This document shows, one piece after another, positions 16,106 through 48,747 of a DNA stretch of 64,000 nucleotides. Within the stretch, counting starts at the first letter, position 1; every line of letters begins with the position of its first letter. Location: positions 6,286-70,285 of the forward strand of contig CANCPA010000001.1 of NCBI GenBank assembly GCA_947379895.1, in the 5' to 3' direction. The DNA comes from Chitinophagaceae bacterium (GTDB taxonomy: Bacteria; Bacteroidota; Bacteroidia; Chitinophagales; Chitinophagaceae). A model generated the notes under the pieces. That model was not told the origin of the DNA. It did no database searches and saw nothing but the letters and a program-made list of their open reading frames with translations. The translations under genes were made by a program, and so were the position numbers.

Positions 16106-19100
16106 TTACTCCTTTATAAATTTCTTCACCTGACTATTACCATTCTCATCCGTTAAATCTAGCATATAAACACCACTTGCTAAATGTGCAGCAGGTATAC
16201 CTAGCTTATTATTAACTGATGAAATTGAAGCAAATTCAGCAACTACCTTTCCTGCCAAGCTTAAGACTTTTACATGATAGCTATTAGAGTTAATCATACT
16301 CTTAGCAATAGATACATTTATTTTGTCTTTTACCGGATTAGGGTAAATATTAATAGTTGAAATTGACGAGTTATCTGTTGACAGTTTTACAATATTGCTG
16401 TAAATAACAGTACCATTTTTTTCTACTGCTTTAATACGATAGTAAAGTGAAGTTGCATCTTCAGGTAACTGATTATCGTCTGATTGGTAGCTACTTGAGT
16501 TTGATGCTTTAACAGTATTAATCGAAACAAAGCTCTTAGCATCAGTACTTCTTTCTACTTGATAAGAAACTATGTTTATTTCACTTGTTACATGCCAATT
16601 CACAGCCACACTATTACCATTTTTAGTAGCACCTATATTAGTAAAGTTTACAGGTAATGGATTAGCAGCAGCATTAGTGAATATCAAAGCAAAACGGTTG
16701 TTACCCTTACTTGCTGTATCTGATGTAATGTTAAATCCGTAAGAAGGATTTGCCCTCACATCATTTTTAACAGACAAATACTTATCAAACAATATGATTG
16801 ATTGCGTAGTATCTAGTGCTGCGAAGTCGCTAAATGCTAATTTAAAACTTCCAGCAGTTGTACTGCTAATACCTAAGGTAACAGTATCTATTGCTAATGT
16901 GTCAGGGTAATAAGAAACAGCCAACCTATCAGAGCCCTTCAATGCGACGATCTGTTGAGATCCACCTCCAAAAGAAACTGCATCATTTACATTATAGTCT
17001 TTTGTACCTGAAGGTGTAAACTTAACCACAATCTCATCTAAACGAGTATCCGCAAGATTAGTAAATCCAACTCTGATTTGTTTCACAGGATTCGTTCCAA
17101 AGAATTTAATACGATTTGGTGTCGTACCAATCTTATGAGCCTCCTTGAAAGTAACCGTCTGTGAAGAACCACTTGCAGATTGAACGAAGAAAGCCTGCCC
17201 ACTCTCCAAATTATTTACATAACCATCATCGCCTGTAGGCACATTCAAGGCAGTACCACCCGAATAAGTAGTATAGTTACCATTTGAGCTATTAGGACTG
17301 TATAACCACATGTTACCCGTTATTCCTGTTGATGCGTTTGCATTATCCGTACGGAATGCATCGAAATCAATCGGAGATGGATATGGATTTGCTAATAAAG
17401 TATATAGATTAGCAGGAACTGATTTTGTTGTCAAATCAACAACTACATCACCCGCACCAACTGTACCCTTTGCAGAAAGTGTTACTGCAACAGGAGCTGT
17501 CGGAGTACCACTAGCCAACTGATCTGTACAAGTACCTTGAGTACGATCCCCACGTATATTGATTCTATACCCCTTTCCAAGTACTAAATTATCAGTGGTA
17601 GTTGGAATTGGAGTCCAATGACTTCCTCCATTCATTGCAGAACCGTAATAATACATACTAGCACTAGCAGCTTGCGAAACATCGAAACCATTTGTATTAT
17701 ACTTGTCTGTAGAAATTAAACCATTTCCTGTTGTAGTACCACAAATTGTACCACCACTTCCTGAGCCAGTAATGTAGAAATTCTTCTGCCATGAATTTTG
17801 AATAGATACGCCACCCACTGCACTTCCGATGAAGCTATATTTACGAGCTGCCTTTGAAGGAATATATCTCTCAACAGTCACATCGCCCACAATTGAACCT
17901 GCAGATTGTGCAATACGTGCGGAGCCGCTCAAATCTGATTTAAGTGATAAGTTTCCTCCTGTAGTTAAGGTAGCACCACTTCCAATCGTTACTATACCCG
18001 CACTAGCGCCTGCAGTAATATTAACCGCATTACCAAGCGTAACTGACGAACTACTATTCAATGTTAAGTTTTTGATAGTATTGCTAGCAGGAGTTAGATA
18101 TAAAGTTCCCGCTGAACCACCAATTGTTAAGCTAGATGATGCGCTTCCCGAAATAGTACCTGTTCCAGAAACAGTTCCGTTAATAGTCAATTTATTTCCG
18201 CCTAATCCAAGTGTTGTTCCACTAGCAATACTCAAATTGTTGACTGTTGTATCAGCTGCAAGAACAGGCAAATAGGTGGTTCCTGTAGGAATGGTAATAT
18301 TATCGGCACCTGTAGGTACTGAATAGCTTTGCCAGTTCGCAACATTAGTGTAACTAGTACTCACCACTCCAAGCCATTGTCCTACTGTACCCGCAGTGAT
18401 GTTACGAGCAGTCAAAGAGGGTTGCGATAAGGTATAAGCCGCCGCATTTGTACCAGAAAGCGTACTCGTACTTGTGATTGCAAGACCTGTTCCAGGTGTA
18501 TTTTGACTATAATTATAAACAGGAACTAGGGTAACATTATCGCCACTTACCAAACCACTAAGCGTTGCACCAGAAACAGAGGCAGTAGCATTGCCATCGT
18601 ATACCTTATTCGCTGTTGTTGCTCCTGTGATTGTAAGAGGAATTGCAGTTTCTACAATTGCAACATCGTTAGACAAATTTGTAGAAGCGGTGTAACTACT
18701 TGAAGTAGGATAGTATGTAGAAGCGACTAATGAACCTACAGAATTATAATTAGTGGTTACACTTGCACCATCTCTTCTAATAATTGATACAGTTCCTGTT
18801 GGTGTAGCCCCACTATTATTTAAACTAATAGTATAAGCTAAGCTAGAAGTATTTTGAAGTATGTTATAATATCTATTACCGAAACGATTAAAACTTACAT
18901 CATTTGGTATTGTACCTGGGAAGTTCCCTTCAAACTGTTCAATAATTACTATAGAAGTTGGAGAAGGAGCCGAAGAATAAGTAAATAAAATAGGACGATA
19001 TACACCGCTTTTACCTATAGGAAAGGAATAAGTTGTCGCAATTGGTGTGCTTAGTCCAAGAGGCCCATTCACATAACTGTTAGCAGAACCACCAGAAACT

Positions 19101-22100
19101 GCCCCTGCTGCTAAAATATCTGCTCCAGTAGCTGTTTTTACAATACCCTTAGTCAACGTCAATGTTCCATATAATGCGACTGTTGATAAACTTGACTTAA
19201 GTGTTATGCTATCGGTAGCATTCTGCGTATTAATTGTGAGGTTACCCATATAACCTGCCCCAAGCGTAGAATTTGTTAATACTACATTATGCGAACCAGG
19301 GAATGAAATACTTCCCCCACTTAAAACGATAGTACTACTCGTTGCTAAAGTCCCTGCACTAAATCCACTATAGGCGTTAACAGTACCTGCAGTAACATTA
19401 TAAGTGCCATTGAAAGTGACAGTAGTTGACGCATCAACTGTCAATCCACCAGAATTCATTGAGAAAGCATTGATTGTTTGAGCAGAACCCACTTCAAATA
19501 CACCTCCAGAGACTGATACACTACAAGTTGCAGGCAATGTATTTGTTCCTGACACTTTAAGTGTACCTCCCGAAACTGTAGTTAAACCTGTATAAGTGTT
19601 TGTACCAGTTAGAGTTTGTGTGGCAGCACCCGATTTGGTAATTGCTCCTGTACCACTAATTACACCTGCATAGGAAGTATTTGTAGAACCAGCTAATGTT
19701 AGGGTAGCAGCACCTAAAGTTACATTGCCACCAGTAGAACCACCTGTAGCCAAAGAGGCGATGCTAGTATTATAACCAGTAATGTCTAAAGAAACACCAG
19801 TCGTATTAGCCAAAGAAACTGCAGAATTTGTACCAAAAGCGGCTGTACTTCCTGCCTTTAAGATACCTCCACTTACTGTAGTGGCACCTGTATAAGTATT
19901 TGTACCTGAAAGAGTGATAGTTCCTGAACCAGATTTAGTAATAGCTACAGTACCAGAACCATTTTGAATGGTTCCACCAAACGAATACGTACCATTTCCT
20001 GCACCAAGAGTTAAGGTTGGTGTACCAGAAGCAGACTGGATTGTCCCTGTACCTGTTAGTGTATAAGCACTTGTGCTATTACCTCCTAAATCAAGGGTAA
20101 AGGTGCTTAATGCAACTGTACCTGTGGCAGTGATAGCAGCGTTAAGTGTAACATTTGCTCCCAATGTAACATTTGCAGGATTACCTAAACCACTAGTAGG
20201 AAATGGTGTAGTAGTTGCACCATTTAATATGTAATTAGCCCCTGCAGTAAAAGTTCTAGTTGCAACTTGAATACTACCTGTAGAAGTACCAACAAGTCCG
20301 TTTGTATTTGAAGAAATAATGGTCGAACCACTACTTGCTATGAATGCAGGAGTTACAGAAGAAGCAAACCCTGATGCGGTTGTATTCGTTCCTTTGACAA
20401 TAGAAAATGTTGAGAAATCTAATGTTGCATTATTTGCTACTGTAACAGTTGCAACATTACTTGCATTGAATGAATAATTATTCAAATTTAGATTGGATGC
20501 CAATGTAAGTGTACCTGCATTAACATTTATATCAATAGGCCCATTCGTATTATTGAATGTACCAGCATTATTAAATTGCTTAGAACCATTCCCATTGAAG
20601 TTAATGATTGCCTTATATGCTGTAGAACTTTGAGTTAATAAACCACCTGAGGCTATGCTAAGATTACCTGATAGATTAAGAGTTCCTAATCCTCCAGTAG
20701 TGGCACCATAGTTTAGATTTAATCCACCTGTTGCTCCAATTGTCAAATTTCCTCCAACAGTGAGTGTACTATTTCCATCCGATGTATTGTTTAATCTTAC
20801 AAATACTCCCCCTGAACTTGTTAGATTGAAATTTCCCCGAATATCAGTTAATGTATTATTCAAATTTAATCCAGTAGTCATACCAGTACAATTCCAAGTA
20901 TAATTTCCAAAAGATTGACTAAACCCTGCTGGCAACACGGGCGATCCACCTGTAACGCCTGTTATGTTACAAGTTGAATTTATATCCCAAGAAGCTGTAG
21001 GTACTGTCCCTCCATTTACATTGTGTGTATATAAAGTGGTTGCACCAAAGATTAAAGAAGTGGCAGTTGCACCTGTAATGGTAGCCCCATTATTAGTTAG
21101 TACTGCACTAGCACCCGAAAAAGTTAAAACTGCATTTGTTGTGATAGTTAATGTAGAAGCAGAACTTAATTGTAGTGTTCCAGAAATGGTATATGCACCA
21201 GTACCAGTTGTCAAAGTACCTCCAACTATAGTAGTTCCTGTACCTATTGTTCTTGCTCCATTTCCAGAATTTGTAATGTTGTTGTAGGTTAGCGGAGTTA
21301 TAACCTGCGTACTAGCAGATGCATAATCTACAGTAGAAGCAGCTCCCAAAGTTAAACTCGTATTTGAAGTAGTAATTGTTGTATTAGCTGCACCACTTAA
21401 CCCATTCAAGTTTGTAGTAGAAATTGTACCAGCAACACTAATAGAAGCAGTTCCAGTACCAGTTTGACTGATTGTGTAATTTCCAGCAGCTAATGTAGAA
21501 TTTACAGTTAAGGTATTCCCTCCATTTATTAAGACATTACCTAATAAAGTAGCCGTATTTCCTGTTGTGCTGATTGTCAAATTACCATACGTGCCTACCG
21601 AAACATCTTGTGCACCTGTAGTCCTATTGTAAATTACTGTAGAGCCTAAAGCAAAAGTTACTGAAGGACTATTTGTACTACTAAAAGAAGATGTAGCTGC
21701 ACCACTAATTCCATTACTTGCCTTTTGTGTGTAAATAGTACCATTGATAGTTGCTGATGCACCTGTACCGAACGACATGGAAGTCGTAGCGATGTCTGCA
21801 AAACAACTAGAATTGAGTATGAACGAACCATTAGCTGCAATTGCAGGACTTGCATTGAAAGTCTTTACACCTGTTATTCCTGAAACCAACAAATTATAAT
21901 AAGGATTCGCTGTGGTAATAGTCTGAGCCGAAGTACTGTTATACTCAACTGTAGAACCTGTGCCCAAAGTAATGGTTGGTGTATTTGTACTTACAATTGA
22001 TGTAGAAGCTGTTCCAGAAAAACCATTGGTATTAGCCGTTTGGAATTTCCCATTGATAGTAGCAGTTCCACTTGTACCAAAAGTTAGGGTATAAGTACTT

Positions 22101-25100
22101 GCCGTAAGCGTAGTTCCTGTAGCAAGTGTAAATGTGTTACTATTACCTAAAACAATATTTCCTCCCAACGATTTTGTAGCGGCAATATTTTGTATAGTAA
22201 GATTACCATAAGTACCTGCGGTGACAGTTTGTGCGGTTCCTCCATCATAAATTACGGTACTAGTCGCATTCAAGGTACCAAATGTTGGAATTGTTGAATT
22301 CTGTAGAGTCAAAGTAGAACCTGCAGTTACATCAACTGTTCCAGTGTAAGCATACGCTGATGGGATAGTAAAGTTGATGGCAGTACCACCATTTCCTATT
22401 ACGACTTTCGAACCACTTCCTGAAACTGTCCAAGTTGCTGCAATAGTAGGTGTCGTATTATTCACCATGTTATAAGTAGCATTTGCTGCTGTAAAATTAC
22501 TTGGCGCAGAACCTGTACCATCCGAATTAGTTCCCCATGTACCTAACACATCTAAAGATCCTGATGATTTGCTATAATAGACGGGGTTAGAAGTAGTAGC
22601 AGTAATAACATTCGAACTTGCACTTGTGTTACTTGCAGTAACAGCCCTAACTACATAATTATAGGCAGTAGAACTTGAAAGGCCTGTAACATTGTAAGTG
22701 GTTACATTGCCAACATTTTGATTATTGAAGCCTGAAACGTAACTAGTGCTTGAAGAACCATAGTTTATCGCAACATCATCAAAAGCAAGATTTCCACTTG
22801 ATTTTGTATAGGTAAACTTAAACTGAGTATAATTGCTAGCAGCCAAAAGAGTAGGTGTACTACTTGCATTATAAGTATAAGTCGTACCAGAAATAGGTAT
22901 AGAGTTTGTAATACTATCAATCCGAACCCAAGATGATCCATTCCAACCTTGTATAAGTAATGCACTTGTAGCATTTGTTGAATTCCCTTTAATCCAAAAG
23001 CTTAACTGAGTAGCACTTGCAGCAAGAGTAGGGCTAGTTAAATATTCCCCATTGTTTGCAAAACCAGTTGAAGGAGATGCTGCGCCATAATTACCCGCCG
23101 ATGTGTATCCACCAGATGCTGTACCAGACCAACCATTTGGAACATTAGTAGCAAATGGTTCACTTAAACTACTTGCATTATTAGTAATTTTATAAACATC
23201 TAATGCATAGCTAGTTGCACCAGTAACAGCCCCCCAATTGGCAGTAAATCCGCTTTGTGTAATTGAACTTGCGTCTGTTGCTACAGGCGTACCTAAGGTG
23301 ACAACGGTTAATAAACCTGGACTTGTAGTTAAATAATTCGCATTATCTGCACCACCACCATTTACACCATTATAGCTATAGATGGCAAAATTATAGGCCA
23401 CACCTGCTGTCAATCCTGTTACTGTAACAGAAGTTGTGGCAGTACTAGCCATTAACACAATGTAATTACTACTTCCTAAGTTAGTACCTGCCCCATAAAC
23501 ATTTGAACCTGCACTATAACCACTAGCACCATCTACCGGATTCTGTGAAACAGCAGCAGTTGGACTAACCACTATTAGGTTGTTACCTCCATTACCATTT
23601 GTAATGGCTAATGTGGCACTCGTAGTTGTATAGGAAGTAAGTGCTAGACTGCTCTGCGTAGTTGGTTTCGTAGCCAAAGTATAAAATTGACCTTGTAGTG
23701 GAGATGTCGTATTATAAGCAATACTACTTCCGGAACCATTATAACTATAGACGCCGTAACTGTACTGTAATGCATTTGTTAAAGTAGAATTTACAGCAGC
23801 ACTTATGCTAGAACCAACATATTCAACAGTTGCATTACCAAGAGTAACACCTACTGTATAGGTAGTTCCTGTTACAGGATTAGTATTTGGATAAGTAGTA
23901 CCCGAAGCTGTGGTTCTTAATACAATATATCCTGCAGCACCACCACTAGCAGCCGACCATCCAAGTGTCATTCCTGTTGTTGTGACAGCTGTTCTACTCA
24001 AGCTTGTAGGTTGTGTAGAAGGTGCAGTAGCTAAAGTTGTAAAAGTAGTAGCTGTACCGTAAGTATAAGAAGTTCCATCAAATAGATATGACTTAAAGGT
24101 ATATCCTGAATTTGAAGAAAGACTACTGATATCCAATGTGTAGGCTCCGGTAGCAATACCTGCAACTGCAGTTTTAGTTACTCCTGTACCATTCACCAAA
24201 GGATCGCTATTTGTAGCAGTTAATGAATAAACAAAACCTTTTTCTGTTGTAGCAGGACAAACACCCAAAGTAGTCACATTTCCATTAAGTGTTGCTGTCA
24301 CATCTGCAATAGCTGTTGCAGCATTTGTTGATACAACAGAAGTTACAGGTGTAATTCCTGTACCTGTTAGTGAACTTGTGGTGGTATTGCTGCCACTAGT
24401 AGTACTACTTACCGTTATAGTAGCAGACTTAGACCCTGCACTTGTTGGAGTAAATGTCACTAAATAAGTAGCAGTACCTCCATTTGCTGTAATTGAGGTA
24501 GAAGATAAACCACTAACAACAAATTGTGCATTATCTGAAATTACTGAAACACCTGCAGCATCAGTACTGCCAGAATTTGTAATAGTATATTGAATTGAAG
24601 TAGCTGGACTATTAGGACATGTATTTCCATTATCGGTAGGTATGCCACTAATTGTTAAATTAGGATAAGATGGAATAGTACTTACTACACTATTAGATAT
24701 AACTGCATTTTGTGTAGTAGCGTTGTCTGAAGTACAAGCTATATTTCCAGAATAAGTTCCCGCTATAGTTGATGAAGCTATGCGAACATATATTGTTGTT
24801 GTATTGACCGTTCCACTTGAAGGAGTAAAAGTTAAAGAAGAGGCAAAACCAGAATTAGTTGAAGTAGAAACCTCAAATCCTGAAGGAGGAGTAACCACCA
24901 AATTAGCAGTCAATCCTGTACCACTAACTGTAAAACTCATATTACTAGAGGCAGTACCTGAATAGGTGGTAACAGAAGTAGGGGATAAAGTACCCACAGT
25001 AATTACAGGTGCTTGAGCTAATACAAAAATCCTAGCTGTGCTTGTAGTTGAGGACGAAGTAACAGAATAAGTAGATGCTGTGCCTGCAAGACTAGTATAA

Positions 25101-28100
25101 GTACCACCTACCGTAGCACTACTAGCAACAACATTATTCGATGAAATAGCAGAAGGGCGAGTAATAGAAACACTCGTATTTGTAAAATTGCCACTTGTAG
25201 TCATTTGCCAGTATTCCGTAGTACTCTTCGAATAAATAGTTGCATCAATACTTCCTCCAGGATTAGCAGCAAAAGCTTGTACTTGAGCAGTAACGCTACC
25301 TGCACCTGTAGTAGGATTCACTAAGCTAAAAGGATAATATCCACCACTAGTACCTATTGGATAGTTGTAAGTAGAACCCGATGCTAAACTAGCAGGTAAT
25401 GTCCAAAGTATTGGACCACTTACATAAGTTGTACTACTTCCACCTGTGATAGCACTTGTTGATGTATTGTTAATTGTAATAGCACTAGCGGTTGTTAGTT
25501 TACCTGCTGTCAGTGTTAATACACCACTAGAAGACAAGGCTAATGCCCCACCTAGAGACACTCCACTTGCCCTATTGATAGAAAGATTTAATAAATCACT
25601 GATAGAAGGTAGCGTTAATGCAGCAGCACTACCAATATCTCCAATATAAAGGCTAGAACCTGTACCGCCCGTAATAGCCGAAGTACCACTTATTGAACCG
25701 TTAATAGCGAACCCATACCCATTGATAGCAAGGCTACTACTATTTGAGAAGGTAAGTGTTCCATTAACCGCCAAGTATTGTGTTTGTGAAACTGCAGCAC
25801 TAGTTCTGTTTATAGTTAGATTATTTACTTGATAATAATTAGATCCACCAATTGAAGTAGAAGTTGATGTTATGAAGTTTCCTGTAGAAGCACCTTGAAA
25901 TTCAAAGTTTGCGCCACTACTAAATCCTCTTGTAGCCGTTTGAATAGCACCTGTAGAACCAGTTGCGTTGATACCTGCGGCATTTGCAGTAATTATTGTA
26001 GAACCAGCATAAGCTTGAAAATTAGTAAAGCCACCTGCATCCAAAATACTATAAGTGCTCGTGTTTAGTGTGGCACCACTATTTACAAAGAAGCCATTCA
26101 ATCTTGAAGCACTTGTTGATGACAAGGTGATGTTATTGCCTAGAGTAACCGTAGCACCATTCAATGCATAGAAATCTATAAAAGCATTACTAGTTGATGA
26201 TACAACAGTGTGACTACCACTTGTAAAGTTGATAGCACCATACCAATACCAATAACCGGTATTGCCTGTAACAGTACCACCTGTAATATTTAGATTGCCT
26301 CCAAGATTCAAGATACCCGAATAAACATAATTATTAGCTGTACTTGTATAGCCGTTCAATGTATTACCACTATTGTTATTATCGTAACCAAACGATAATA
26401 AACCACTGCTTACCGTTAAAGCATTTGTAACCCCTACCGTGGCAATACCCGCAGTACCACTACTAGGGAAAGTCATATATAAATATCCCCCATTAATCGT
26501 CAAGGCATTAAAAGAGTAGGTCCTGTTTGTTGCATCATTTATTAAGTACAATCCGTTTGCACCATTTCCTGTATTTGTAACTGTAAATGTACCAGCAGTA
26601 GTAAAGGATGCATTATTGAAGGCAAGGAATGCAGATTGACTAGCACAATTCCAAGTGAATTTTCCAAAAGTTTGACCTAAGCCTGTAGGCATAGTAGCTG
26701 TAACCCCTTGTACGGTAACTGTTGAAGCGGCATCCCACAAAGCGGTAGGGATTGCAGGACTTGTACTGTAGTTAGATACATAACCTGCACTCGCAGCAAA
26801 TTTGAAAAATGAAGTAGAGTTACCTAAATAACTACCTCCATTATCGGTTAAAGTACCTGTGATATTTAATATACCCGTGTTTATAGTAAGTCTTTTCCCA
26901 CTATTGAGGGTTACTGCACCTGGTAAATTAAAGGTGTTGCCTGAACTAACATTTACATATAAAGCACTAGATGTACCTGTACCCGTACCATTTAGAATGA
27001 TTGTACCATTATTAGTAATTGTACTAGAGAGACTAGAAATAGTAAATGGTCCAGAGATGGTTAAAGTTACACCTGCATCAACAGTTAAATTACCACCGCT
27101 AAGCGTAAGACTGCTTAAAGTTTGGTTACTACTCACCTGTAAAGTACCACCACTAACTGATGTAGCGGTTGATGATGAAAGAGTGGCACCCCCCGATTTA
27201 TTTAGTTGCAATGTACCGCCACTAACTGTTGTAGCACCAGTATAGGTATTTGTTCCACTAAATGTAATAGTGCCTGTACCCACTTTAGTAAGAGTATAGC
27301 CACTTCCACCATCGCTTAATACTCCAGATAATGTGATATTGCCACTACTTGTACCAACACTACTATTGCTACCCAACGATATAGCCCCACTATAGGTAGC
27401 ACCTGTTGCACTGCTATTGGTAATAGCACCAGCACTTGAGATACCTGTACCATTAATGGTAAGCCCTACTGCTTTAGCTAGTGTATATCCATTTAAGTCT
27501 AATACTGCACCACTTGTTACACTCGTACTACCTGTACCCAAGGGCGTATTAGTAGCATCACCAGTATTGCCTAATTTTAAAGTACCCGCACTAATGGTAG
27601 TACTGCCTGAATAGGTATTAGCTCTAGTAAGAGTCAATGTTCCAGCCGAAGTTTTAACCAATGAGCCAGAACCAGCAATAATACCTCCGTATGATACAGA
27701 AGTAGATGCCGCAACATCTAGCGTATTACTTGTTCCAGTAGATAATGTCATTCCACGGTTTGCATTTACAGAAACACCATTAAATCCACTGCCAAAGCTC
27801 AATGTACCGCCACCCAAGGTAATATAGCTCGAGTTAACTGAACCGGGAACAGCTCCCAAGTCGGTTTCTTTGTTCACTATTACAGTACCACCTGTAATAT
27901 TCAAGCCATTATAGGTATGATTTGTGGTATTCGATGCACTAAAAAGAAAAGTGCCAGCACCCGTTTTGTTGAATGGCCCAGAACCACTAACCAAGCATTG
28001 CCCACCATTTGCAATATTGGTTCCACCTGTATTGTAATTCGTCCATGTAACGCCATTGGGCAAATCGATCGTACTAGTCGTACCAGCAAAGTCAATACTT

Positions 28101-29584
28101 CTATCACTTACAAAGCTTGCTGTAGAGTTCATTGTACCATTATTCAAGTAGATAGTATTTACTTGTCCGCCTAATTTACCTACTCCAAGATTTGTAAGTG
28201 TACCACCGTTTACAGTTGTCGTTCCTGTGTAAGCATTAGAACCATTTGTAATTGCCAATACCCCTGTCCCGTTTTTTACAATATTGTATGCCCCACTAAT
28301 CAATCCCCCAAGTGTCAGTGTATCAGTAGATGCCCCATTTACAGTAATCGTTGGACTCGTTCCCAGAGTAATGGCACCTGTTCCTTGAGATAGACTTTTC
28401 GAATTGCCAAAAGTAAAGCTGGAATTTATATTAAGGGCATTGGTTATGGCTTCGTAGCTGCCACTCGTATTGTCTATCGTTGCTGTACCCGAAATAGTTA
28501 AAGCTCCCGTACCAAGTGCTGTAGCGTTGTTTACATTTAATTGCCCCGAACTTAGAATAGTGCCCCCAGAATAAGTATTGGTACCAGAAAGCGTAGTTGT
28601 ACCAGCACCAGCAAAGGTTAAGTTTCCTGCATTTGTGTTGCTTATTACTCCACTTAACGTTAATGGTGCTGCTGCAATAGGTGCAAAAGTAGTCGTTTGA
28701 CTTGTGCCTCCACCAATATCTACACTACCACCAAGAGTAATTGCACTACTACCACTTGTAGCAAATGAATAACCACTAGCACCTATTATTGTTCTACTTG
28801 GAGCAACACTAATAGTTGCAGGAATTGTCACAGATTTTGCCGCAGTTACTGTACTAGAGAAATTGGCATTATAAGCACCTGATGAAGGCCATACTACGCC
28901 AGGTGCTGTATTAGCAGTAAAAGTTGCCCCCGAACTAATACCCCAATTTTTTGTGGTATTGTTATCCCAAATATTATTGGTATTGTTTGCTGCGTTTCCT
29001 CCATTCCAAAAGTAATTCGTAGCTGGAGGCATTTGATATAATGTAATATTTTGTTGAGTACCAGTATAGCAAGCAAACCGTGGTGAACTAGTATTATATT
29101 GTAACAAACGAGTATTAGAACCAACATTGGTTAAAGTAAATGTTGTAGATGGATAAGCAAATGTCCACTGTTCAGTAGTTCCAGCAACAGAAGCTGCTGT
29201 GTTTGCTACATTACCACCTCCACTTGGGAATGAAACGTAAACTGAAGCAGCCTCATTATAAATAGTCTTTATGTTTCCACTAACCGTAGTTATTTTCCAA
29301 ACAATTGAAGTTGGAGGATTGGTAATTACTCCTGATGAAGGGGTAATAGCAGTATTACCAAAATATGTATTCCCTCCACTATTTGTATTATTCATTGCGA
29401 AGGTCGTTCCATAAGCAATTACATAATACCCATCTGAAAGTGACGCCAAAGAACTAATTTGCGTAAATGTTCCTGTACCTGAATATTGCCCCTTCACCCC
29501 ACCAACAAAAAAAGCCATACCCATCATCAATAGGGCAAGGCTTTTCATCATCAACTGTGCAATAGACTTTGTTGCAGTCTTCAT
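16106..29584 (-). CDS. Giant (~4,490 aa) T9SS-secreted beta-solenoid/adhesin-like protein with autotransporter-associated repeats, FN3 and YDG domains
   Basis: Signal peptide MKTATK...GVKGQ (ORF is open to 29650). About seven GxGTxTLSGxNTYTGxTTVxxGTL repeats, FN3-like units, YDG motif (KVYDGNATA), 'LPVNF' Ig domain and T9SS CTD (IYPNPVKD...GVYMLDL...KKFIKE). Confidence 0.9.
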   Translation of the reverse strand: MKTATKSIAQLMMKSLALLMMGMAFFVGGVKGQYSGTGTFTQISSLASLSDGYYVIAYGTTFAMNNTNSGGNTYFGNTAITPSSGVITNPPTSIVWKITTVSGNIKTIYNEAASVYVSFPSGGGNVANTAASVAGTTEQWTFAYPSTTFTLTNVGSNTRLLQYNTSSPRFACYTGTQQNITLYQMPPATNYFWNGGNAANNTNNIWDNNTTKNWGISSGATFTANTAPGVVWPSSGAYNANFSSTVTAAKSVTIPATISVAPSRTIIGASGYSFATSGSSAITLGGSVDIGGGTSQTTTFAPIAAAPLTLSGVISNTNAGNLTFAGAGTTTLSGTNTYSGGTILSSGQLNVNNATALGTGALTISGTATIDNTSGSYEAITNALNINSSFTFGNSKSLSQGTGAITLGTSPTITVNGASTDTLTLGGLISGAYNIVKNGTGVLAITNGSNAYTGTTTVNGGTLTNLGVGKLGGQVNTIYLNNGTMNSTASFVSDRSIDFAGTTSTIDLPNGVTWTNYNTGGTNIANGGQCLVSGSGPFNKTGAGTFLFSASNTTNHTYNGLNITGGTVIVNKETDLGAVPGSVNSSYITLGGGTLSFGSGFNGVSVNANRGMTLSTGTSNTLDVAASTSVSYGGIIAGSGSLVKTSAGTLTLTRANTYSGSTTISAGTLKLGNTGDATNTPLGTGSTSVTSGAVLDLNGYTLAKAVGLTINGTGISSAGAITNSSATGATYSGAISLGSNSSVGTSSGNITLSGVLSDGGSGYTLTKVGTGTITFSGTNTYTGATTVSGGTLQLNKSGGATLSSSTATSVSGGTLQVSSNQTLSSLTLSGGNLTVDAGVTLTISGPFTISSLSSTITNNGTIILNGTGTGTSSALYVNVSSGNTFNLPGAVTLNSGKRLTINTGILNITGTLTDNGGSYLGNSTSFFKFAASAGYVSNYSTSPAIPTALWDAASTVTVQGVTATMPTGLGQTFGKFTWNCASQSAFLAFNNASFTTAGTFTVTNTGNGANGLYLINDATNRTYSFNALTINGGYLYMTFPSSGTAGIATVGVTNALTVSSGLLSFGYDNNNSGNTLNGYTSTANNYVYSGILNLGGNLNITGGTVTGNTGYWYWYGAINFTSGSHTVVSSTSNAFIDFYALNGATVTLGNNITLSSTSASRLNGFFVNSGATLNTSTYSILDAGGFTNFQAYAGSTIITANAAGINATGSTGAIQTATRGFSSGANFEFQGASTGNFITSTSTSIGGSNYYQVNNLTINRTSAAVSQTQYLAVNGTLTFSNSSSLAINGYGFAINGSISGTSAITGGTGSSLYIGDIGSAAALTLPSISDLLNLSINRASGVSLGGALALSSSGVLTLTAGKLTTASAITINNTSTSAITGGSSTTYVSGPILWTLPASLASGSTYNYPIGTSGGYYPFSLVNPTTGAGSVTAQVQAFAANPGGSIDATIYSKSTTEYWQMTTSGNFTNTSVSITRPSAISSNNVVASSATVGGTYTSLAGTASTYSVTSSSTTSTARIFVLAQAPVITVGTLSPTSVTTYSGTASSNMSFTVSGTGLTANLVVTPPSGFEVSTSTNSGFASSLTFTPSSGTVNTTTIYVRIASSTIAGTYSGNIACTSDNATTQNAVISNSVVSTIPSYPNLTISGIPTDNGNTCPNSPATSIQYTITNSGSTDAAGVSVISDNAQFVVSGLSSTSITANGGTATYLVTFTPTSAGSKSATITVSSTTSGSNTTTSSLTGTGITPVTSVVSTNAATAIADVTATLNGNVTTLGVCPATTEKGFVYSLTATNSDPLVNGTGVTKTAVAGIATGAYTLDISSLSSNSGYTFKSYLFDGTSYTYGTATTFTTLATAPSTQPTSLSRTAVTTTGMTLGWSAASGGAAGYIVLRTTASGTTYPNTNPVTGTTYTVGVTLGNATVEYVGSSISAAVNSTLTNALQYSYGVYSYNGSGSSIAYNTTSPLQGQFYTLATKPTTQSSLALTSYTTTSATLAITNGNGGNNLIVVSPTAAVSQNPVDGASGYSAGSNVYGAGTNLGSSNYIVLMASTATTSVTVTGLTAGVAYNFAIYSYNGVNGGGADNANYLTTSPGLLTVVTLGTPVATDASSITQSGFTANWGAVTGATSYALDVYKITNNASSLSEPFATNVPNGWSGTASGGYTSAGNYGAASPSTGFANNGEYLTSPTLAASATQLSFWIKGNSTNATSALLIQGWNGSSWVRIDSITNSIPISGTTYTYNASSTPTLLAASNYTQFKFTYTKSSGNLAFDDVAINYGSSSTSYVSGFNNQNVGNVTTYNVTGLSSSTAYNYVVRAVTASNTSASSNVITATTSNPVYYSKSSGSLDVLGTWGTNSDGTGSAPSNFTAANATYNMVNNTTPTIAATWTVSGSGSKVVIGNGGTAINFTIPSAYAYTGTVDVTAGSTLTLQNSTIPTFGTLNATSTVIYDGGTAQTVTAGTYGNLTIQNIAATKSLGGNIVLGNSNTFTLATGTTLTASTYTLTFGTSGTATINGKFQTANTNGFSGTASTSIVSTNTPTITLGTGSTVEYNSTSAQTITTANPYYNLLVSGITGVKTFNASPAIAANGSFILNSSCFADIATTSMSFGTGASATINGTIYTQKASNGISGAATSSFSSTNSPSVTFALGSTVIYNRTTGAQDVSVGTYGNLTISTTGNTATLLGNVLINGGNTLTVNSTLAAGNYTISQTGTGTASISVAGTISTTNLNGLSGAANTTITTSNTSLTLGAASTVDYASASTQVITPLTYNNITNSGNGARTIGTGTTIVGGTLTTGTGAYTISGTLQLSSASTLTITTNAVLTFSGASAVLTNNGATITGATATSLIFGATTLYTHNVNGGTVPTASWDINSTCNITGVTGGSPVLPAGFSQSFGNYTWNCTGMTTGLNLNNTLTDIRGNFNLTSSGGVFVRLNNTSDGNSTLTVGGNLTIGATGGLNLNYGATTGGLGTLNLSGNLSIASGGLLTQSSTAYKAIINFNGNGSKQFNNAGTFNNTNGPIDINVNAGTLTLASNLNLNNYSFNASNVATVTVANNATLDFSTFSIVKGTNTTASGFASSVTPAFIASSGSTIISSNTNGLVGTSTGSIQVATRTFTAGANYILNGATTTPFPTSGLGNPANVTLGANVTLNAAITATGTVALSTFTLDLGGNSTSAYTLTGTGTIQSASGTPTLTLGAGNGTYSFGGTIQNGSGTVAITKSGSGTITLSGTNTYTGATTVSGGILKAGSTAAFGTNSAVSLANTTGVSLDITGYNTSIASLATGGSTGGNVTLGAATLTLAGSTNTSYAGVISGTGAITKSGAATQTLTGTNTYTGLTTVSGGTLKVSGTNTLPATCSVSVSGGVFEVGSAQTINAFSMNSGGLTVDASTTVTFNGTYNVTAGTVNAYSGFSAGTLATSSTIVLSGGSISFPGSHNVVLTNSTLGAGYMGNLTINTQNATDSITLKSSLSTVALYGTLTLTKGIVKTATGADILAAGAVSGGSANSYVNGPLGLSTPIATTYSFPIGKSGVYRPILFTYSSAPSPTSIVIIEQFEGNFPGTIPNDVSFNRFGNRYYNILQNTSSLAYTISLNNSGATPTGTVSIIRRDGASVTTNYNSVGSLVASTYYPTSSSYTASTNLSNDVAIVETAIPLTITGATTANKVYDGNATASVSGATLSGLVSGDNVTLVPVYNYSQNTPGTGLAITSTSTLSGTNAAAYTLSQPSLTARNITAGTVGQWLGVVSTSYTNVANWQSYSVPTGADNITIPTGTTYLPVLAADTTVNNLSIASGTTLGLGGNKLTINGTVSGTGTISGSASSSLTIGGSAGTLYLTPASNTIKNLTLNSSSSVTLGNAVNITAGASAGIVTIGSGATLTTGGNLSLKSDLSGSARIAQSAGSIVGDVTVERYIPSKAARKYSFIGSAVGGVSIQNSWQKNFYITGSGSGGTICGTTTGNGLISTDKYNTNGFDVSQAASASMYYYGSAMNGGSHWTPIPTTTDNLVLGKGYRINIRGDRTQGTCTDQLASGTPTAPVAVTLSAKGTVGAGDVVVDLTTKSVPANLYTLLANPYPSPIDFDAFRTDNANASTGITGNMWLYSPNSSNGNYTTYSGGTALNVPTGDDGYVNNLESGQAFFVQSASGSSQTVTFKEAHKIGTTPNRIKFFGTNPVKQIRVGFTNLADTRLDEIVVKFTPSGTKDYNVNDAVSFGGGSQQIVALKGSDRLAVSYYPDTLAIDTVTLGISSTTAGSFKLAFSDFAALDTTQSIILFDKYLSVKNDVRANPSYGFNITSDTASKGNNRFALIFTNAAANPLPVNFTNIGATKNGNSVAVNWHVTSEINIVSYQVERSTDAKSFVSINTVKASNSSSYQSDDNQLPEDATSLYYRIKAVEKNGTVIYSNIVKLSTDNSSISTINIYPNPVKDKINVSIAKSMINSNSYHVKVLSLAGKVVAEFASISSVNNKLGIPAAHLASGVYMLDLTDENGNSQVKKFIKE

Positions 29585-30045
29585 CGTTCGTACATTGTTT
29601 GTTGTTTGTACCATTTGTAACATTGTATTTGTATTGTTAGCTGTAAACATGTTTATTATTATTATCCTATTAACTCAAATTGTATAACGCCACAAAAAAG
29701 AACACTCTTGCAAAAGCAACAGCTCCCATTTTTGTTCACAAATTTTTTTCAATTTACAGCAATCGATAGACGATTTTCATCAATAGATATTAAAAAATAC
29801 AGACTCAAGTTGCAAAGTTACTGTCTGAATGCCGTAAAAATAGGGGAATTGGATTAATAAATTATTACCTTTTGAATGGATTAAGCAAATATTTTATAGT
29901 TAAAGCTGCAAAAATGTTAGCAAACGCTTAATTATTCACATATTATCACCAATTATATATAGAGATGATATTCTTTTCTTCAAAAGAGATAAAGGCGGAA
30001 AATTGAATCAGTTGTCTCTTTATTATCTTCAATTTAGCATACAAC

Positions 30046-30161: not shown

Positions 30162-30827
30162 TTAAGGTATCATCACACTCGTAATTAAACCTACAGGCCC
30201 CCGTTCGGCTCTTCTGTTTTCATAGCAACCTCTCACATAAAGGGTTTTTCCTGAATCTCCGTCTTTAAATGTCATGGTATAAAATGCAGAAGGAATATTT
30301 ACGCCACTACCAAACACGATGTCTTTGTCTGCCAGAGTAGGTAGCCCAATATAACTTTCAAAAAACACTTTATTTCCTTTTGGCATCTTTCTGCTATTAG
30401 GTGTATCAGAATTAATGAGTTTGAATTTAATTAAGAGGTGAGAAATGAACATCACAATAATAACCGGGCACCATGTTGCAACAGGAATTGGACTTCCTGA
30501 ATTGCGAAGAAATAACCTGAGTGCATACCTATCTGCAGTGGTCAATTTTTCTGGATTGATTTTACAAAGAACTGCAGGGAAATCCACCTTAATTTTTGCC
30601 TTTAATCTTTTTTGTTCATTAATAATAGCAGTTGTACACTGATTAGGGTCAATTGCCTTAGCCCTATTTATAGACCACGCGTCTACATCATCAACTAATA
30701 ATGTTTCATCTACAGGTAATATTGCCAATCTTGTTTTATTGGCAAGAATTAAAATATAGATGATTAAAGCAACTACATAACTACTAAAATCAATGTCTTT
30801 TACTGGAAAACGTACTGAAACTGTCAT
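30162..30827 (-). CDS. Uncharacterised 221-aa protein, helical N-terminus plus Ig/FN3-like C-terminus (gene A)
   Basis: Clean ORF with an A-rich start context and its own terminator; no signal peptide. Ends in GKTLYVRGCYENRRAERGPVGLITSVMIP, which resembles a FN3 terminal strand pair. Confidence 0.7.
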   Translation of the reverse strand: MTVSVRFPVKDIDFSSYVVALIIYILILANKTRLAILPVDETLLVDDVDAWSINRAKAIDPNQCTTAIINEQKRLKAKIKVDFPAVLCKINPEKLTTADRYALRLFLRNSGSPIPVATWCPVIIVMFISHLLIKFKLINSDTPNSRKMPKGNKVFFESYIGLPTLADKDIVFGSGVNIPSAFYTMTFKDGDSGKTLYVRGCYENRRAERGPVGLITSVMIP

Positions 30828-30947
30828 AATAAATATTTTTATTTGTTAATAGAAGACTGTTTGAATAAACAGACATCTTATCTGTTTACATAAGCAGGTG
30901 ATAGTAAAAATTGTTTCTTTTGAGAAAAACGAATTCTTTTCAGTCCT

Positions 30948-31157
30948 TTAAGAGACGTCTTTAAGGAATTAAGAGAACGCTTTAAGATAGTAAGAGAACT
31001 CGTAAGCATATTAAGAGACGACCTAATTAAGCGAAGAGAACTCGTAACTGAGTTAATAGACGATGTAATAGTATTAAGCGATTTCGTAATAAACTAAAGA
31101 GACTACGTAGATGAGTTTGCTGAACTCGTTAGTGAATAAAAAGACGTCTTAATACAA
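30948..31157. repeat. Degenerate tandem array of 10 x 21-bp units
   Basis: Units such as TTAAGAGACGTCTTTAAGGAA, TTAAGAGAACGCTTTAAGATA and TTAAGAGACGACCTAATTAAG. GA is invariant at unit positions 7-8 in all ten units. Confidence 0.9.
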
Positions 31158-31702
31158 CCACAATGCATCTTAAACTAGTAAACAAATGAATCATCCTGCC
31201 CTTAAGCATCCTTTACAATGGTGAACAGTTGCGATTTGAGAGAAGAAGGAAAGGTAAGCTGGTTTTAGGATTGGGTAAAAGAAAAAATCTGCATTCTGCA
31301 CCAAAACGGTGGCAGTATTTAAATGGGCAATTTTTTTCACTTTTTTCATGTTGTAAATATCCCACTTAATAAGGAGTGGCAAATCTAAATTTCAATACAA
31401 CCCAAATAATAGGGCAATAAACACAATATGATTCCGCATTCCGACAAATAAATCAAGGTTTTCGGTAAATTATTTAAATAATCTACAATATTTGACAAAA
31501 TAAATATAAACAACAATACAAAATAACGGTTGATTAATAAGGTTTTGTAAAATAACATAGTATCAAATACTAGATTCCTTTGGCAATTTAAACTGTCTAG
31601 TTGTGTCGCAATTTCGAATATCTCATCTAGCGTACTACTAATAAATGAGAATGACCTGCTTTTCATTTCAGGTATATTCTGCATAAAAAAGAAAGAAGAC
31701 AT

Positions 31703-31756
31703 TTGTCGGAATTGAGTTAGGAGAAGGCAAGCCTTCTCCTAACTCAATTCCGACAA
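31703..31756. repeat. Perfect 26-bp inverted repeat with a 2-nt loop; may double as the GH106 terminator
   Basis: TTGTCGGAATTGAGTTAGGAGAAGGC-AA-GCCTTCTCCTAACTCAATTCCGACAA. Confidence 0.95.
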
Positions 31757-31768
31757 TCACTTTACCTC

Positions 31769-34700
31769 TTACAACTCCTTTGCCTCACCAAACTGTAGTC
31801 TTACAGGTCCTACTAACCCTGCAGGCTGTAATTGACTATCCTTTTTATAATAATACCAATTTGTAAATGCTTTCCTTCCTTTAGATGGTCGTGCTTGATT
31901 TTTGATAAACCAATCAGGATAAGCCTTTAATGGCCGTCCCACAATTTCGTTTTTAAACATACGTTCTTTTCCAAACTCTAAATCTGCTGCCTCTTGTTCA
32001 TCTCCTATCAGTCGATTAGCCCAATTATTTGTTACAGCAATATCAATCGTATTTATACCCACCTTCAATGCATCTGTTATCTCTGTTTTATAAGGAGGAT
32101 ACCACAATACACCGATGTTATTATTATTAATCGATAATTGAACGATGTCATTCACGGTACCCAAATCGAGCATAATCCTCTTACCTTTTGCCAATTCTTC
32201 GGCAGTGAGTTGTATCTGTTTAGTGTAATGTGCAGTGCCAGCAAAATAGTTTACTTCCTTGTTTTGATGTTTACTAAAATCAATCAATTCGGAAATGTCT
32301 AATTCAAACTTATCATTCATTTTTGGTTCAAATGCAACATGCCAACTTCCTGTTATTTCCTTTGCCGTCATTGGTTTAAAATCCAAAACCATTTCTTTTC
32401 CATCAGACATAGTTACTTTGGTAGAACTTTCTTTGTACGCGACAATCGAAGGCTTATTTTCCTTATTTGTCAAACTAATATCTGTATCTAATCCATTTGT
32501 GGCAACGAAAGTCGCATGAGTTGTTTTATTTGCTTGCTTTCTAAATACAACAAAGGCTGACTGTCTTCCTTTCAAAAACATTTGTACAAAAGTTCTTTCA
32601 CCCTCTTCTTTCCAAACACTTGCCACTGATTGACTGCCATTTTCGGCCTGCCAAATTTCGGGTTGTAATTTATTTACCCTGAATGACAAATACACTTGCT
32701 GTGGCTTGCTATCTGTATTCGCAACAAAGTAAACGTGGGTATTGCCCTTTTGACGATGAACATATTTAATTTCCTTACTATTATCTGCTTTTTCAATAAT
32801 AAAATCGGGCAAAAGCTTACATTTCTCAATGGCATTCTTTACAGAATTGGTCACCCATCCTTTTCCATAGCTATTCTCCGTTTTATTATTCCAAACATCA
32901 ACTCCAATACTTTTTATTTTCATATCAGCACTTGGAAAATCTTGTAAACTAGGAGAGGCTTTTGGCTGAGGCGATACTACATAAGCACCCGCAACGACCA
33001 ATTCCTTTATTTTTTCTGCAACAGCAGGAAGAATGGTATCTCCCTTTGGAAATACAATGAAGGCATATTTACGTCCTGATGGCAACACAACCTGATGATT
33101 TTCTACCTTTATATCCCTAACAAGAAAGTCATTGGTAGCCATTAAATCACTAAAACCATCTTGCTTATCTACACATAGATAATCGGCCACCTGTTCGCCA
33201 AATTGCAACAAAACCTGTGAACGACCAAGATAACTAAAAAATGCTTTTCCAGGTTCTGCCCATGTCTGATGCCTACTAAAGTGAGTACCCCACCATCCCA
33301 TGCCCATGCCAGGTTGGTATTTATCGTCAAAAGGCTGATGTACCCAATGATGCAATACCAATCTATTTACCCCCGAAGAAAAAGTGCCATCAGCAGAGAG
33401 TTTCAAAAACTCAGGGTCCTCGGTAAACTTGGAATTATTCGGCAAACTCGTAAAAGATTCTGCACCAACTACCGTTTTGCCGGCAGCACGGGCAGCAGCA
33501 GGAATTGCACCATTGATACCTCCTTTGCCTCCTGTCCAAAATTCGCCCATAGGCAAATCGGGCAGACCGGCACCTTCTACCATATCAAATGGTCCTGAAT
33601 AAGGTTCCCATTGAAGTTTAAGGTTATTGTCGTTACAAATCTTCTTCCCTAATTGCCAACCATTTTCATTGAAAAGTCGGTTAATCACATCTGTATAGTC
33701 CCATTCAAAACGCTTGGTTTCCTCTGCCGAATTAATGATTCTTCTTTGCTTACTATCTTTACTATTAGTTATAGGTTTACCAAACGAAACTAACCAAGGA
33801 ATTGGATCATATCCTTTACGCTTGATAAATTCTTCTCTAAAATTAGCTGTCCAATTCTGATAACCCGATTCGTAACTGTCTATCAATAAATGCTTAAAAC
33901 TCTTGCCAATATAATTTCCTAGGTTTTTCTTTAAAGGGTCAATCACCGTATTCCAATGATACTTACTAAGACTTGCATCCATCTTATCTACCTCTAATGC
34001 TTTGCCCAATACATCGTCGGGAACAGGATGTGGAGAAATCATTGTAGGACTATTACCAATCCTCACAATTTTCCATTTGCCAACAGGGGCATTCCAATTC
34101 ACATTTCCATTGCCATCACAGTATGTTGTGATATTCACTACTTCCTTCAATCCAATACTATCGGCAATCGGTAGGGCAAGCATTACAATGTCCTTATAAT
34201 AGTTAGCCTTTTTAGAATTTCCTCCCCAACCAGACTCGGTAGGTTTTTGAGGAGTAGGGACATTGACAGAAACATTGCTACCGCCTTCCACATCTATGCT
34301 CGACCAAACCAGTTTTTGCATCCCTTGCTCTTCCTTAATCCATGGACCACCCGTAGTTGAGTATCCAACCGAATTATGCAACCCAATTTCTAATCCTAAT
34401 CGATCTGCTTCTTGTGCTGCAAAACGAATAGCCTCCCAATAGGCAGGACTGCGATAAGTTTGATTTGGCCAAGGTAAATTTTCTGTAGACGCATTTGATT
34501 CTTGTACGGCAGATGTTAGATTGAAGATTGTCGCCCCACCAATCCCTGCCGCTTTCATGGCTTCGAGGTCTTTGGTAATACCATATTTCGAGAAGTTACT
34601 ACCCATCCAATGCCACCAAACATACGGCTTTGAATTGGTAGGAGGATTAAAAAAATCCCTTTCTAAATCATCAATTTGAACTTTACCCTTTTGGGCTTTT

Positions 34701-34771
34701 AAACAAACAGGAAAAAGGGCAATAAATAATATTGTTATGCTTAAATAGGCTTGCAATGTTTTATTAGTCAT
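31769..34771 (-). CDS. Glycoside hydrolase family 106 (alpha-L-rhamnosidase-like), secreted
   Basis: PYVWWHWMG...GITKDLEAMKAAGIGG, IDSYE, GAESFT and GVNRLVLHHWVHQP motifs; C-terminal GH2-type sugar-binding domain. Confidence 0.85.
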   Translation of the reverse strand: MTNKTLQAYLSITILFIALFPVCLKAQKGKVQIDDLERDFFNPPTNSKPYVWWHWMGSNFSKYGITKDLEAMKAAGIGGATIFNLTSAVQESNASTENLPWPNQTYRSPAYWEAIRFAAQEADRLGLEIGLHNSVGYSTTGGPWIKEEQGMQKLVWSSIDVEGGSNVSVNVPTPQKPTESGWGGNSKKANYYKDIVMLALPIADSIGLKEVVNITTYCDGNGNVNWNAPVGKWKIVRIGNSPTMISPHPVPDDVLGKALEVDKMDASLSKYHWNTVIDPLKKNLGNYIGKSFKHLLIDSYESGYQNWTANFREEFIKRKGYDPIPWLVSFGKPITNSKDSKQRRIINSAEETKRFEWDYTDVINRLFNENGWQLGKKICNDNNLKLQWEPYSGPFDMVEGAGLPDLPMGEFWTGGKGGINGAIPAAARAAGKTVVGAESFTSLPNNSKFTEDPEFLKLSADGTFSSGVNRLVLHHWVHQPFDDKYQPGMGMGWWGTHFSRHQTWAEPGKAFFSYLGRSQVLLQFGEQVADYLCVDKQDGFSDLMATNDFLVRDIKVENHQVVLPSGRKYAFIVFPKGDTILPAVAEKIKELVVAGAYVVSPQPKASPSLQDFPSADMKIKSIGVDVWNNKTENSYGKGWVTNSVKNAIEKCKLLPDFIIEKADNSKEIKYVHRQKGNTHVYFVANTDSKPQQVYLSFRVNKLQPEIWQAENGSQSVASVWKEEGERTFVQMFLKGRQSAFVVFRKQANKTTHATFVATNGLDTDISLTNKENKPSIVAYKESSTKVTMSDGKEMVLDFKPMTAKEITGSWHVAFEPKMNDKFELDISELIDFSKHQNKEVNYFAGTAHYTKQIQLTAEELAKGKRIMLDLGTVNDIVQLSINNNNIGVLWYPPYKTEITDALKVGINTIDIAVTNNWANRLIGDEQEAADLEFGKERMFKNEIVGRPLKAYPDWFIKNQARPSKGRKAFTNWYYYKKDSQLQPAGLVGPVRLQFGEAKEL

Positions 34772-48437: not shown

Positions 48438-48489
48438 CATTAGCTGAGAAGAGTCTATTTTAAATTACAATTTTAGTTTTGATTAAATT

Positions 48490-48737: not shown

Positions 48738-48747
48738 GATATTAATA

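Follow-up and report, generated by a model that had tools for sequence, protein, structure and literature searches.

Iteron/Rep systems (those of R6K, pPS10, F and P1) and centromere/operator systems (ParR-parC of R1, omega of pSM19035, ParG-parH of TP228 and SopB-sopC of F) carry direct repeats phased at about two turns of the DNA helix upstream of a small protein gene, with a repeat private to each system and with array and gene often separated by a hairpin or an inverted repeat. In type III toxin-antitoxin (TA) systems (toxIN, cptIN, tenpIN) a promoter, a repeat array and a gene of ~200 aa follow one another on the same strand, the repeats again being private and the loci stand-alone and patchily distributed. 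LytTR-type regulators (AgrA/ComE/PlnC) are served by direct repeats spaced 21-22 bp, of which known sites have two or three, and the DUF6261 (PF19775) genes of Bacteroidales may be accompanied by private palindrome arrays. BrickBuilt, a minisatellite of Porphyromonas gingivalis that also counts among the miniature inverted-repeat transposable elements (MITEs), repeats one 23-nt unit in all of its copies and has promoter activity (PMC4596501). Here we describe a further arrangement, found in a 64,000-nucleotide stretch of contig CANCPA010000001.1 from a Chitinophagaceae bacterium (hereafter the window), in which an array of 21-bp units stands upstream of a gene for a protein of ~220 aa. The first-pass annotation of the window had proposed two such loci, here termed A and B, together with a third array on its own.

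Locus A and the loci like it (hereafter modules) share with the iteron and centromere systems the phasing of the repeats, their place before a small protein gene, the private repeat and the frequent hairpin between the two. Direct repeats of 17-22 bp phased by ~21-22 bp beside a gene, as in iterons, were found at locus A (ten units) and at 39 of all 64 modules examined, the arrays having 4-30 units and most of them ending 32-360 bp before the start codon. A further, presumed likeness would be that the protein binds the array beside its gene cooperatively and controls its own expression. In contrast to the iteron and centromere proteins, however, the module protein has no match to a winged-helix, ribbon-helix-helix or helix-turn-helix (HTH) domain and consists of a helical domain and an FN3-like sandwich; the module also lacks a partner ATPase or a replication function, and it occurs in tens of copies in chromosomal spacers beside housekeeping genes, with most arrays orphan. 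The resemblance to iteron or centromere operators is one of design only. No description of 21-bp arrays paired with such a gene family was found in the literature, and the module, which is recognised by no protein, RNA, defence or phage library, is apparently undescribed.

The gene families and their upstream arrays

Gene A, at locus A, had been described in the first-pass annotation as a stand-alone gene for a 221-aa protein with its own terminator and with ten 21-bp units beginning some 120 bp upstream, and both parts of this description held. Eight relatives in the protein database (57-76% identity, seven of them with 221 aa, the eighth with a called length of 236 aa) conserve gene A, which is therefore a real gene; a hairpin with a T-run follows it, and the array lies where it had been placed. 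Array A, with a consensus of approximately CTTACGAGTTCTCTTAATnnn on the gene strand, showed an identity to itself at a lag of 21 bp (lag-21 identity) of 0.56 over its whole length and of 0.62 in its best 126-bp stretch, against a window background of 0.30 +/- 0.055. It was reported by Tandem Repeats Finder too, and per-position conservation reveals a core, TTAAGAGA on the + strand. The same arrangement had been claimed for 47442-48437; here the second 221-aa gene, gene B, is a real conserved gene with 11 relatives, but its array is a mere vestige.

The A and B profiles were iterated against all six-frame open reading frames (ORFs) of the window's genome (5.3 Mb, 401 contigs), yielding ~15 full-length paralogues of A and ~12-16 of B, and a third family, C, with ten members, was found among ORFs beside other arrays. 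The three families together count ~37 genes in this genome, encoding proteins of 216-231 aa from the first Met, and A, B and C members alike have a helical N half and an FN3-like C half. The suggestion that the two window genes belong to a dispersed family was thereby upheld, and members were also found in sister species and in three other genera. Among ORFs of ~220 aa beside orphan arrays there was no profile or paralogue support for further hidden families, and tblastn detected family remnants at only two more arrays.

Genes of the three families in the window's genome were then compared with control ORFs for periodicity in their upstream sequence. Enough upstream sequence was available for 12 genes of family A and 12 of family B; an upstream lag-21 identity of at least 0.58-0.60 was reached by seven of the former, by six of the latter and by 4.4% of 1329 control ORFs. 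No comparable peak was found downstream of family genes (maximum 0.30-0.59). With upstream gaps of at least 500 bp only, arrays preceded 14 of 26 family genes versus 82 of 472 controls (Fisher p = 5e-5); the enrichment of 21-bp autocorrelation near homologues, which the first-pass annotation had proposed to check and whose absence it had named as a refutation, was thus present. In other species of the genus, arrays stood at 8 of 15 A loci with the peak always at -200 to -350, and in orthologous loci on metagenome contigs the array lies at the equivalent position and has a unit related to that of array A. Clear arrays occupy the equivalent place at about half of the family-B paralogues of the window's genome. 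Among B-like genes beyond the genus, 21- or 42-bp arrays, many of them perfect and of 16-30 units, accompanied 7 of 10 in G046 and 3 of 3 in G039, genomes from two other families of the order, and the single one in G022, from another genus of the same family. The link between the family genes and upstream 21-bp arrays is real, and its position is conserved across paralogues, species and families of the order.

Perfect arrays were found to precede paralogues of just 30-40% identity, and in one pair of paralogues at 93% identity the arrays already differ at 5-6 of 21 positions; the arrays are therefore renewed in place. The size of the protein is as narrowly fixed as the period of the array, both in the window's genome and in a search of 1.84 billion proteins in which each match stands for a cluster at 50% identity. 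Among the best 150 matches of the family-B profile in that search, 60 were full-length relatives of 191-241 aa, none of them fused to another domain, and for the C half the search showed homology with FN3 repeats that giant surface proteins contain.

The architecture of helices followed by an immunoglobulin (Ig)- or FN3-like domain, which the first-pass annotation had proposed, was borne out for B by a structure model, by Foldseek and by the profile search, and for A by secondary structure only. The model of B had a predicted local distance difference test (pLDDT) score of 57, and its sandwich matched FN3 domains with a Foldseek E of 9e-5 and a template modelling (TM) score on the target of up to 0.69. 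In the C half a seven-strand beta sandwich with an FN3 (PF00041) sequence signature was found, the relatives in G046 carrying it as GLTPG...Y..QVR..N..G.S.WSDP; the Pfam fn3 model itself reached E = 0.022 in one member only, under the gathering score. The model of protein A (pLDDT 43.6) was too poor for a fold search, and showed helices then strands in the same order as in B. The similar C-termini claimed for two proteins of low overall identity stood in part: BLASTP found no similarity between A and B, but profile-profile comparison aligned only their last 15-43 residues, where the beta domain has its final strands. The two proteins represent separate families with a common C-terminal FN3-like domain and a common overall architecture. 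Between families A and C the alignment spans the whole protein (hhalign E 1.7e-4, probability 49%); B has only the FN3-like end in common with these two.

No member of A, B or C matched Pfam, NCBIfam, PHROG, PADLOC or PDB sequences, the sole weak PDB match being a POU domain at E = 1.5. A phage or defence origin was rejected, as PHROG, PADLOC and a viral fold library gave nothing beyond FN3. An iteron/Rep replicon was rejected because A, B and C gave no Rep-type winged-helix match and the fold of B is one of helices and FN3. A ParR, ParG or omega module was rejected since there is no adjacent ParA, ParM or TubZ, the neighbours are heterogeneous, each module has its own terminator, and no ribbon-helix-helix or HTH domain was detected. 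A role of the locus as replication origin of a plasmid or phage was likewise rejected, with ~37 copies lying in chromosomal contigs near secA, pheT, nusA and adhesin genes and with locus B being an insertion between porin gene and rimP. Membership of DUF6261 was rejected, as its hidden Markov model found nothing at E <= 1 anywhere in the window's genome.

Of 20 further genomes of the genus, one set of 11 contained all three families, C being present in one more, and A gave 2-30 matches per positive sister genome, figures that count matches and not exact copy numbers. None of the three was found in the same 8 of the 20 sister genomes. B- and C-like genes were also found in G046 (11 B and 3 C), G039 and G022. 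Because one of the negative genomes, G001, is as close to the window's genome as several positives (rimP-nusA identity 76%, one marker gene and not a tree), the presence of the families does not obviously follow a single clade.

Possible readers of the arrays

Arrays were common throughout the window's genome, with 75 at lag 7, 66 at lag 14, 112 at lag 21, 125 at lag 42 and 69 at lag 63; the sole lag with many arrays that is not a multiple of 7 was 41, with 19, and any other lag had 0-3. Purely 21-periodic strong arrays numbered 73, of which 69 lay outside ORFs. Array densities in the other genomes were taken from samples of 200-400 kb and are given per 400 kb. With A, B and C present, the window's genome (G000, read whole) had 8.4 lag-21 arrays and G003 (206 kb read) ~14, and G046, with B and C, had 10. 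Where the families were not found, G001 had 5, plus nine 11-bp arrays, G007 had 4 (three arrays in 300 kb) and G011, of the same genus, had 0 in 400 kb read. Save for one array each at lag 15 and at lag 36, the periods in G046 were 21, 42 and 63 only.

Unit sequences are mostly private, with 78 of 2628 array pairs over the null threshold, and 11 of 60 orphan arrays have a unit sequence in common with a gene-linked array, where 0.6 were expected. Dyad symmetry is enriched, 36% of units reaching the 95th percentile of the null, and the conserved positions of a unit are clustered (t = 4.3), a weak 10.5-bp sub-period being visible as well. Dyad symmetry and clustered cores, as read from the unit sequences, are properties of protein-binding sites. 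The arrays are not coding, and the proposal that they encode heptad-repeat peptides was rejected: an open frame that looks amphipathic runs along the + strand of array A, but conservation in the 73 arrays has no 3-periodicity, there is no start codon, and open frames in arrays are only slightly longer than those in their flanks. Derivation of the 21-bp period from 7-bp arrays was also rejected, as G046 has many 21-bp and no 7-bp arrays.

Twenty-one base pairs make two turns of the double helix, and 21, 42 and 63 bp are all commensurate with 10.5 bp per turn. Because the periods are only 21, 42 and 63 whatever the unit sequence, the arrays would seem to act as double-stranded DNA, with their units on one helical face. 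We tentatively favour the reading that the array is a helically phased docking platform of double-stranded DNA, read by the adjacent protein, which would thereby regulate itself. The 21-bp units would all present the same helical face, so that docking sites would be lined up in phase just ahead of the gene's promoter. The likeliest reader would be the protein encoded next to them, which could coat the array as a phased oligomer and in this way set its own expression, and whose action could extend to orphan arrays of similar sequence at other places in the genome. Action at the level of DNA, binding by the neighbouring protein and autoregulation are all inferred here. If this reading is true, an unstudied module of two parts, a private, strictly 21-bp-periodic array and a size-locked protein, is present in Chitinophagales in tens of copies per genome. 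The question raised is why hundreds of unrelated repeats obey one two-turn period, and what reads them.

Several observations weigh against a docking platform read by the neighbouring protein. Among the 73 strong arrays, just 15 have a gene or gene fragment of the families at a distance of up to 1.8 kb, and ~40% of family genes have no clear array (e.g. those at L050, L051 and L055). The arrays of G046 are estimated at ~150, far above its family genes, and since the family-free genomes G007 and G001 have some as well, arrays do not depend on the family proteins. Searches of Pfam, NCBIfam and PDB sequences gave no recognisable DNA-binding domain in these proteins, and those of family C are acidic (median pI 6.1).

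In a bolder form of the docking reading, which we consider unlikely, the helical + FN3 proteins would be a new class of sequence-specific DNA-array binders, polymerising at a 21-bp step along private operators, with each paralogue reading its own unit and with orphan arrays as targets in trans. The Ig-like sandwich is the type of fold by which eukaryotic factors of the Rel, p53 and Runx type bind DNA. Such binders would amount to tens of orthogonal protein-array pairs per genome, that is, to DNA-addressing modules and, possibly, to a level at which the chromosome is organised or genes are controlled. Binding by the proteins in itself would already mean a new DNA-binding family with many naturally orthogonal protein-site pairs.

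The strongest rival, which we hold to be somewhat unlikely, is that the arrays are sequence-independent phased elements upstream of promoters (curved DNA, docking sites for nucleoid proteins or copy-number 'rheostat' minisatellites) that tune any gene behind them, and that the family proteins do not bind them, their genes being simply under selection for strong or variable expression and for that reason usually preceded by an array. The excess of orphan arrays, 58 of the 73 strong arrays adjoining unrelated genes, and the absence of a DNA-binding domain from the proteins keep this explanation strong. Arrays occur in all intergenic types, convergent ones included, at roughly background proportions, and also in genomes without A, B and C; the periods are multiples of 10.5 bp whatever the unit, G001 having arrays of 11, 22 and 33 bp as well, and the number and perfection of the units vary widely among copies. 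It leaves unexplained, however, why three families keep arrays at a fixed position over long divergence, why cores are clustered and dyad-symmetric, and why orphan and gene-linked arrays have units in common, and G011, a member of the same genus, has no arrays in 400 kb. If the proteins do not bind, the arrays would point to a sequence-independent, helix-phase-dependent regulatory element widespread in Bacteroidota.

An RNA-level module of the type III TA kind is improbable. Here array and gene would share a transcript, from which the array would be cleaved into 21-nt pieces that neutralise the protein by binding it, or guide it, and orphans would be antitoxin or decoy arrays. The layout fits, since an array directly precedes a gene of ~200 aa on the same strand, each paralogue has its private repeat, and the loci are stand-alone, multi-copy and patchy; array A, lying 33 nt past the stop of a small ORF, is probably transcribed, and in one module (L052) array and gene are separated by a strong terminator-like hairpin. 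Such hairpins are nevertheless inconsistent among the leaders (12 of 33 forward versus 14 of 33 reverse, with no orientation bias), and type III TA was rejected for want of a consistent array-gene terminator and of any similarity to ToxN or AbiQ (PADLOC, Pfam). Type III TA units measure 34-45 nt against 21 nt here, where many arrays are orphans, the period is locked to the helical repeat of DNA, and no strand-composition bias is seen. For RNA, a two-turn period accompanied only by 42 and 63 would be a coincidence.

It is quite improbable that the arrays are neutral by-products, that is, fast minisatellites or MITE-like elements that spread and decay in AT-rich spacers and hitch-hike by duplication. 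BrickBuilt offers a precedent, being like the module arrays a strictly intergenic, multi-copy repeat of Bacteroidota without spacers between its units, some copies having leader and tail flanks in common (PMC4596501). A comparable dispersed element, of ~450 bp and non-coding, consists of a 21-bp array (unit approximately GCACGTGCTGCAACCACTCAA) with conserved head and tail flanks and was found in six copies (C2:46002, C4:44914, C10:25535, C31:7891, C53:8393 and C54:13849), of which only the C53 copy adjoins a family gene, of family C. Many arrays are decayed, and 22 of the 73 strong ones lie at contig ends. In contrast to the module, BrickBuilt has no associated protein family (PMC4596501), whereas here the period is 21, nearly every array has a private unit and three families stand behind arrays. 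A BrickBuilt-type MITE in the strict sense was thus rejected, as units are mostly private, though sub-families with common flanks exist. Slippage gives no reason for a single period over hundreds of unrelated units in several families of the order, perfect arrays before paralogues of 30-40% identity require renewal at the same site, and the association is directional, upstream only, and positionally fixed.

Finally, it is very improbable that the arrays are sites for LytTR-type response regulators with the helical + FN3 genes as their targets: 21-bp spacing of direct repeats upstream of a regulated gene is the hallmark of AgrA/ComE/PlnC-type sites, and one LytTR gene is convergent to a B paralogue (C49), but those promoters have two or three repeats against 4-30 here, LytTR counts do not track arrays (9 matches versus at least 73 arrays in the window's genome, 1 versus 10 of distinct sequence per 400 kb in G046, 11 versus none in 400 kb in G011), and no LytTR gene adjoins locus A or B in the window.

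Layout of loci A and B

The module of which locus A is one copy stands alone in the chromosome and is present many times. Its parts at locus A follow one another on the minus strand in the order promoter-like block, 52-aa small ORF, ten units, 120-nt leader, gene for a 221-aa cytoplasmic protein and terminator (Table 1).

Table 1. Positions of the module features and of the orphan array in the window
Feature	Position	Strand	Remarks
Orphan array, ~12 units	2585-2840		between GNAT gene (1896-2423, -) and asnS-like gene (2892-4364, +)
Intrinsic-terminator-like hairpin + T-run, 3' of gene A	30083-30048	-	16-pair stem then TTGTTGT
Gene A, family A	30162-30827	-	221 aa, no signal; N half helical, C half beta-rich
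Small hairpin AAACAGA / TCTGTTT	30867-30887	-	within 120-nt leader, array A to start codon
Array A, 10 degenerate 21-bp units, non-coding	30948-31157		121 bp from gene A start codon
Small ORF, 52 aa, ends in SFFSQIATVHHCKG...AG	31191-31349	-	stop 33 nt ahead of array A
Promoter-like block CGGAATGCGGAAT ... TTATTTGG	31402-31443	-	upstream of small ORF; conserved
Palindrome, 26-nt perfect arms	31703-31760	-	terminator of 1000-aa gene 31769-34771; module boundary, outside module
Decayed 21-bp array, locus B	47437-47595		lag-21 identity 0.45-0.46, ~3 sd over background
Palindrome, 35-nt arms	47462-47532		inside decayed locus-B array
Gene B, family B	47772-48437	+	221 aa; four helices (residues 3-102), linker, FN3-like beta sandwich (124-220), from model
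Terminator-like hairpin + T-run past gene B	~48491-48525	+	read from sequence

The promoter-like block was kept in orthologous loci (L001, L004) and in paralogous copies, with a TTTG element invariant in the alignment, and may act as a promoter. The small ORF behind it was also found upstream of arrays or family-A genes at C375, C335, C59, C3, C309, C247, L001, L004-L006 and L044. Differences between its orthologues and paralogues sit at third codon positions, and the small ORF is therefore coding; no relatives were found in the protein database. The small hairpin in the leader was picked out by eye and scores as a hairpin with a T-rich tail, and it has a counterpart in the close paralogue at C375. 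The terminator-like hairpin, where the transcript of gene A would end, lies ~80 nt past its stop codon and ~430 nt ahead of a gene for a 4514-aa adhesin.

A palindrome further upstream, which had been taken as part of the arrangement, does exist with 26-nt perfect arms but does not belong to the module. It begins 9 nt past the stop of a 1000-aa minus-strand gene and is absent from the orthologous modules at L001 and L004, whose upstream neighbours differ, and it is therefore the terminator of the neighbouring gene.

Downstream neighbours of modules, as judged from C-terminal sequences, are mixed and include adhesins of the type IX secretion system (T9SS), secA-, pheT-, nusA-, bamA- and sprA-like genes and regulator genes, and because of this heterogeneity the modules are regarded as standing alone. 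A functional tie to the downstream gene was rejected on the same ground, since other copies lie ahead of genes of the non-adhesin kinds just listed. Directly downstream of gene A, on the minus strand at 16106-29650, lies the adhesin gene, its 4514-aa, repeat-rich product having a signal-like N-terminal segment and a T9SS-type C-terminal sorting domain. An A-family gene is followed by a giant gene also at C59 (6097 aa) and on the orthologous contigs L001 and L004; the neighbours of other members are unrelated.

At locus B, porin gene and rimP are ~300-400 bp apart in relatives and 2.2 kb apart in the window. The module there is a ~1.45-kb insertion (~47250-48712) between the porin stop and a conserved 115-nt block, with no convincing terminal inverted repeats or target duplications at its ends. 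That block, of ~115 nt and situated at 48713-48835, contains a GGCTCCGAT...ATCGGGGCC hairpin with a T-run and occurs in the porin-rimP spacer of all relatives examined. It is present in three tandem copies ~200 bp apart in G001, and could be a terminator, a small RNA or an element like the repetitive extragenic palindromes (REP). Between the block and the rimP leader, at 48836-49330, the window has ~400 bp of extra non-coding sequence compared with relatives.

Other arrays and repeat classes

The third array of the window, which had been put forward at 2587 as a possible orphan site, is stronger than array A (lag-21 identity 0.74-0.84) and has the core TTAAG(A/C)GAC in common with it, and no family gene or fragment was found within 1.8 kb. 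It is thus a strong array without a family gene, as suggested, but not a special one, being one of ~58 orphans.

With 22 of the 73 strong arrays at contig ends and with one module split between two contigs, modules fragment the assembly. The split module lies at the starts of contigs C3 and C8: its small ORF and array are at C3:147-565, and the opening 23 codons of the gene, at C3:3-71, are the same as those with which C8:79-741 starts. In practical terms, modules break short-read assemblies, and their genes are currently unannotated orphans.

Two further repeat classes were noted. In G001, 400 kb held nine arrays of period 11 (harmonics 22, 33 and 44) besides the five of period 21, period 11 being almost absent from the window's genome. 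Tandem arrays of 7 bp were seen in spacers of the window at 4366-4470, 11197-11279, 62254-62328 and 63139-63273, in addition to the genome-wide count at lag 7 given above. Because they are absent from the sample of G046, which is rich in 21-bp arrays, they form a separate repeat class, and they recall the short tandemly repeated repetitive (STRR) heptamers of cyanobacteria.

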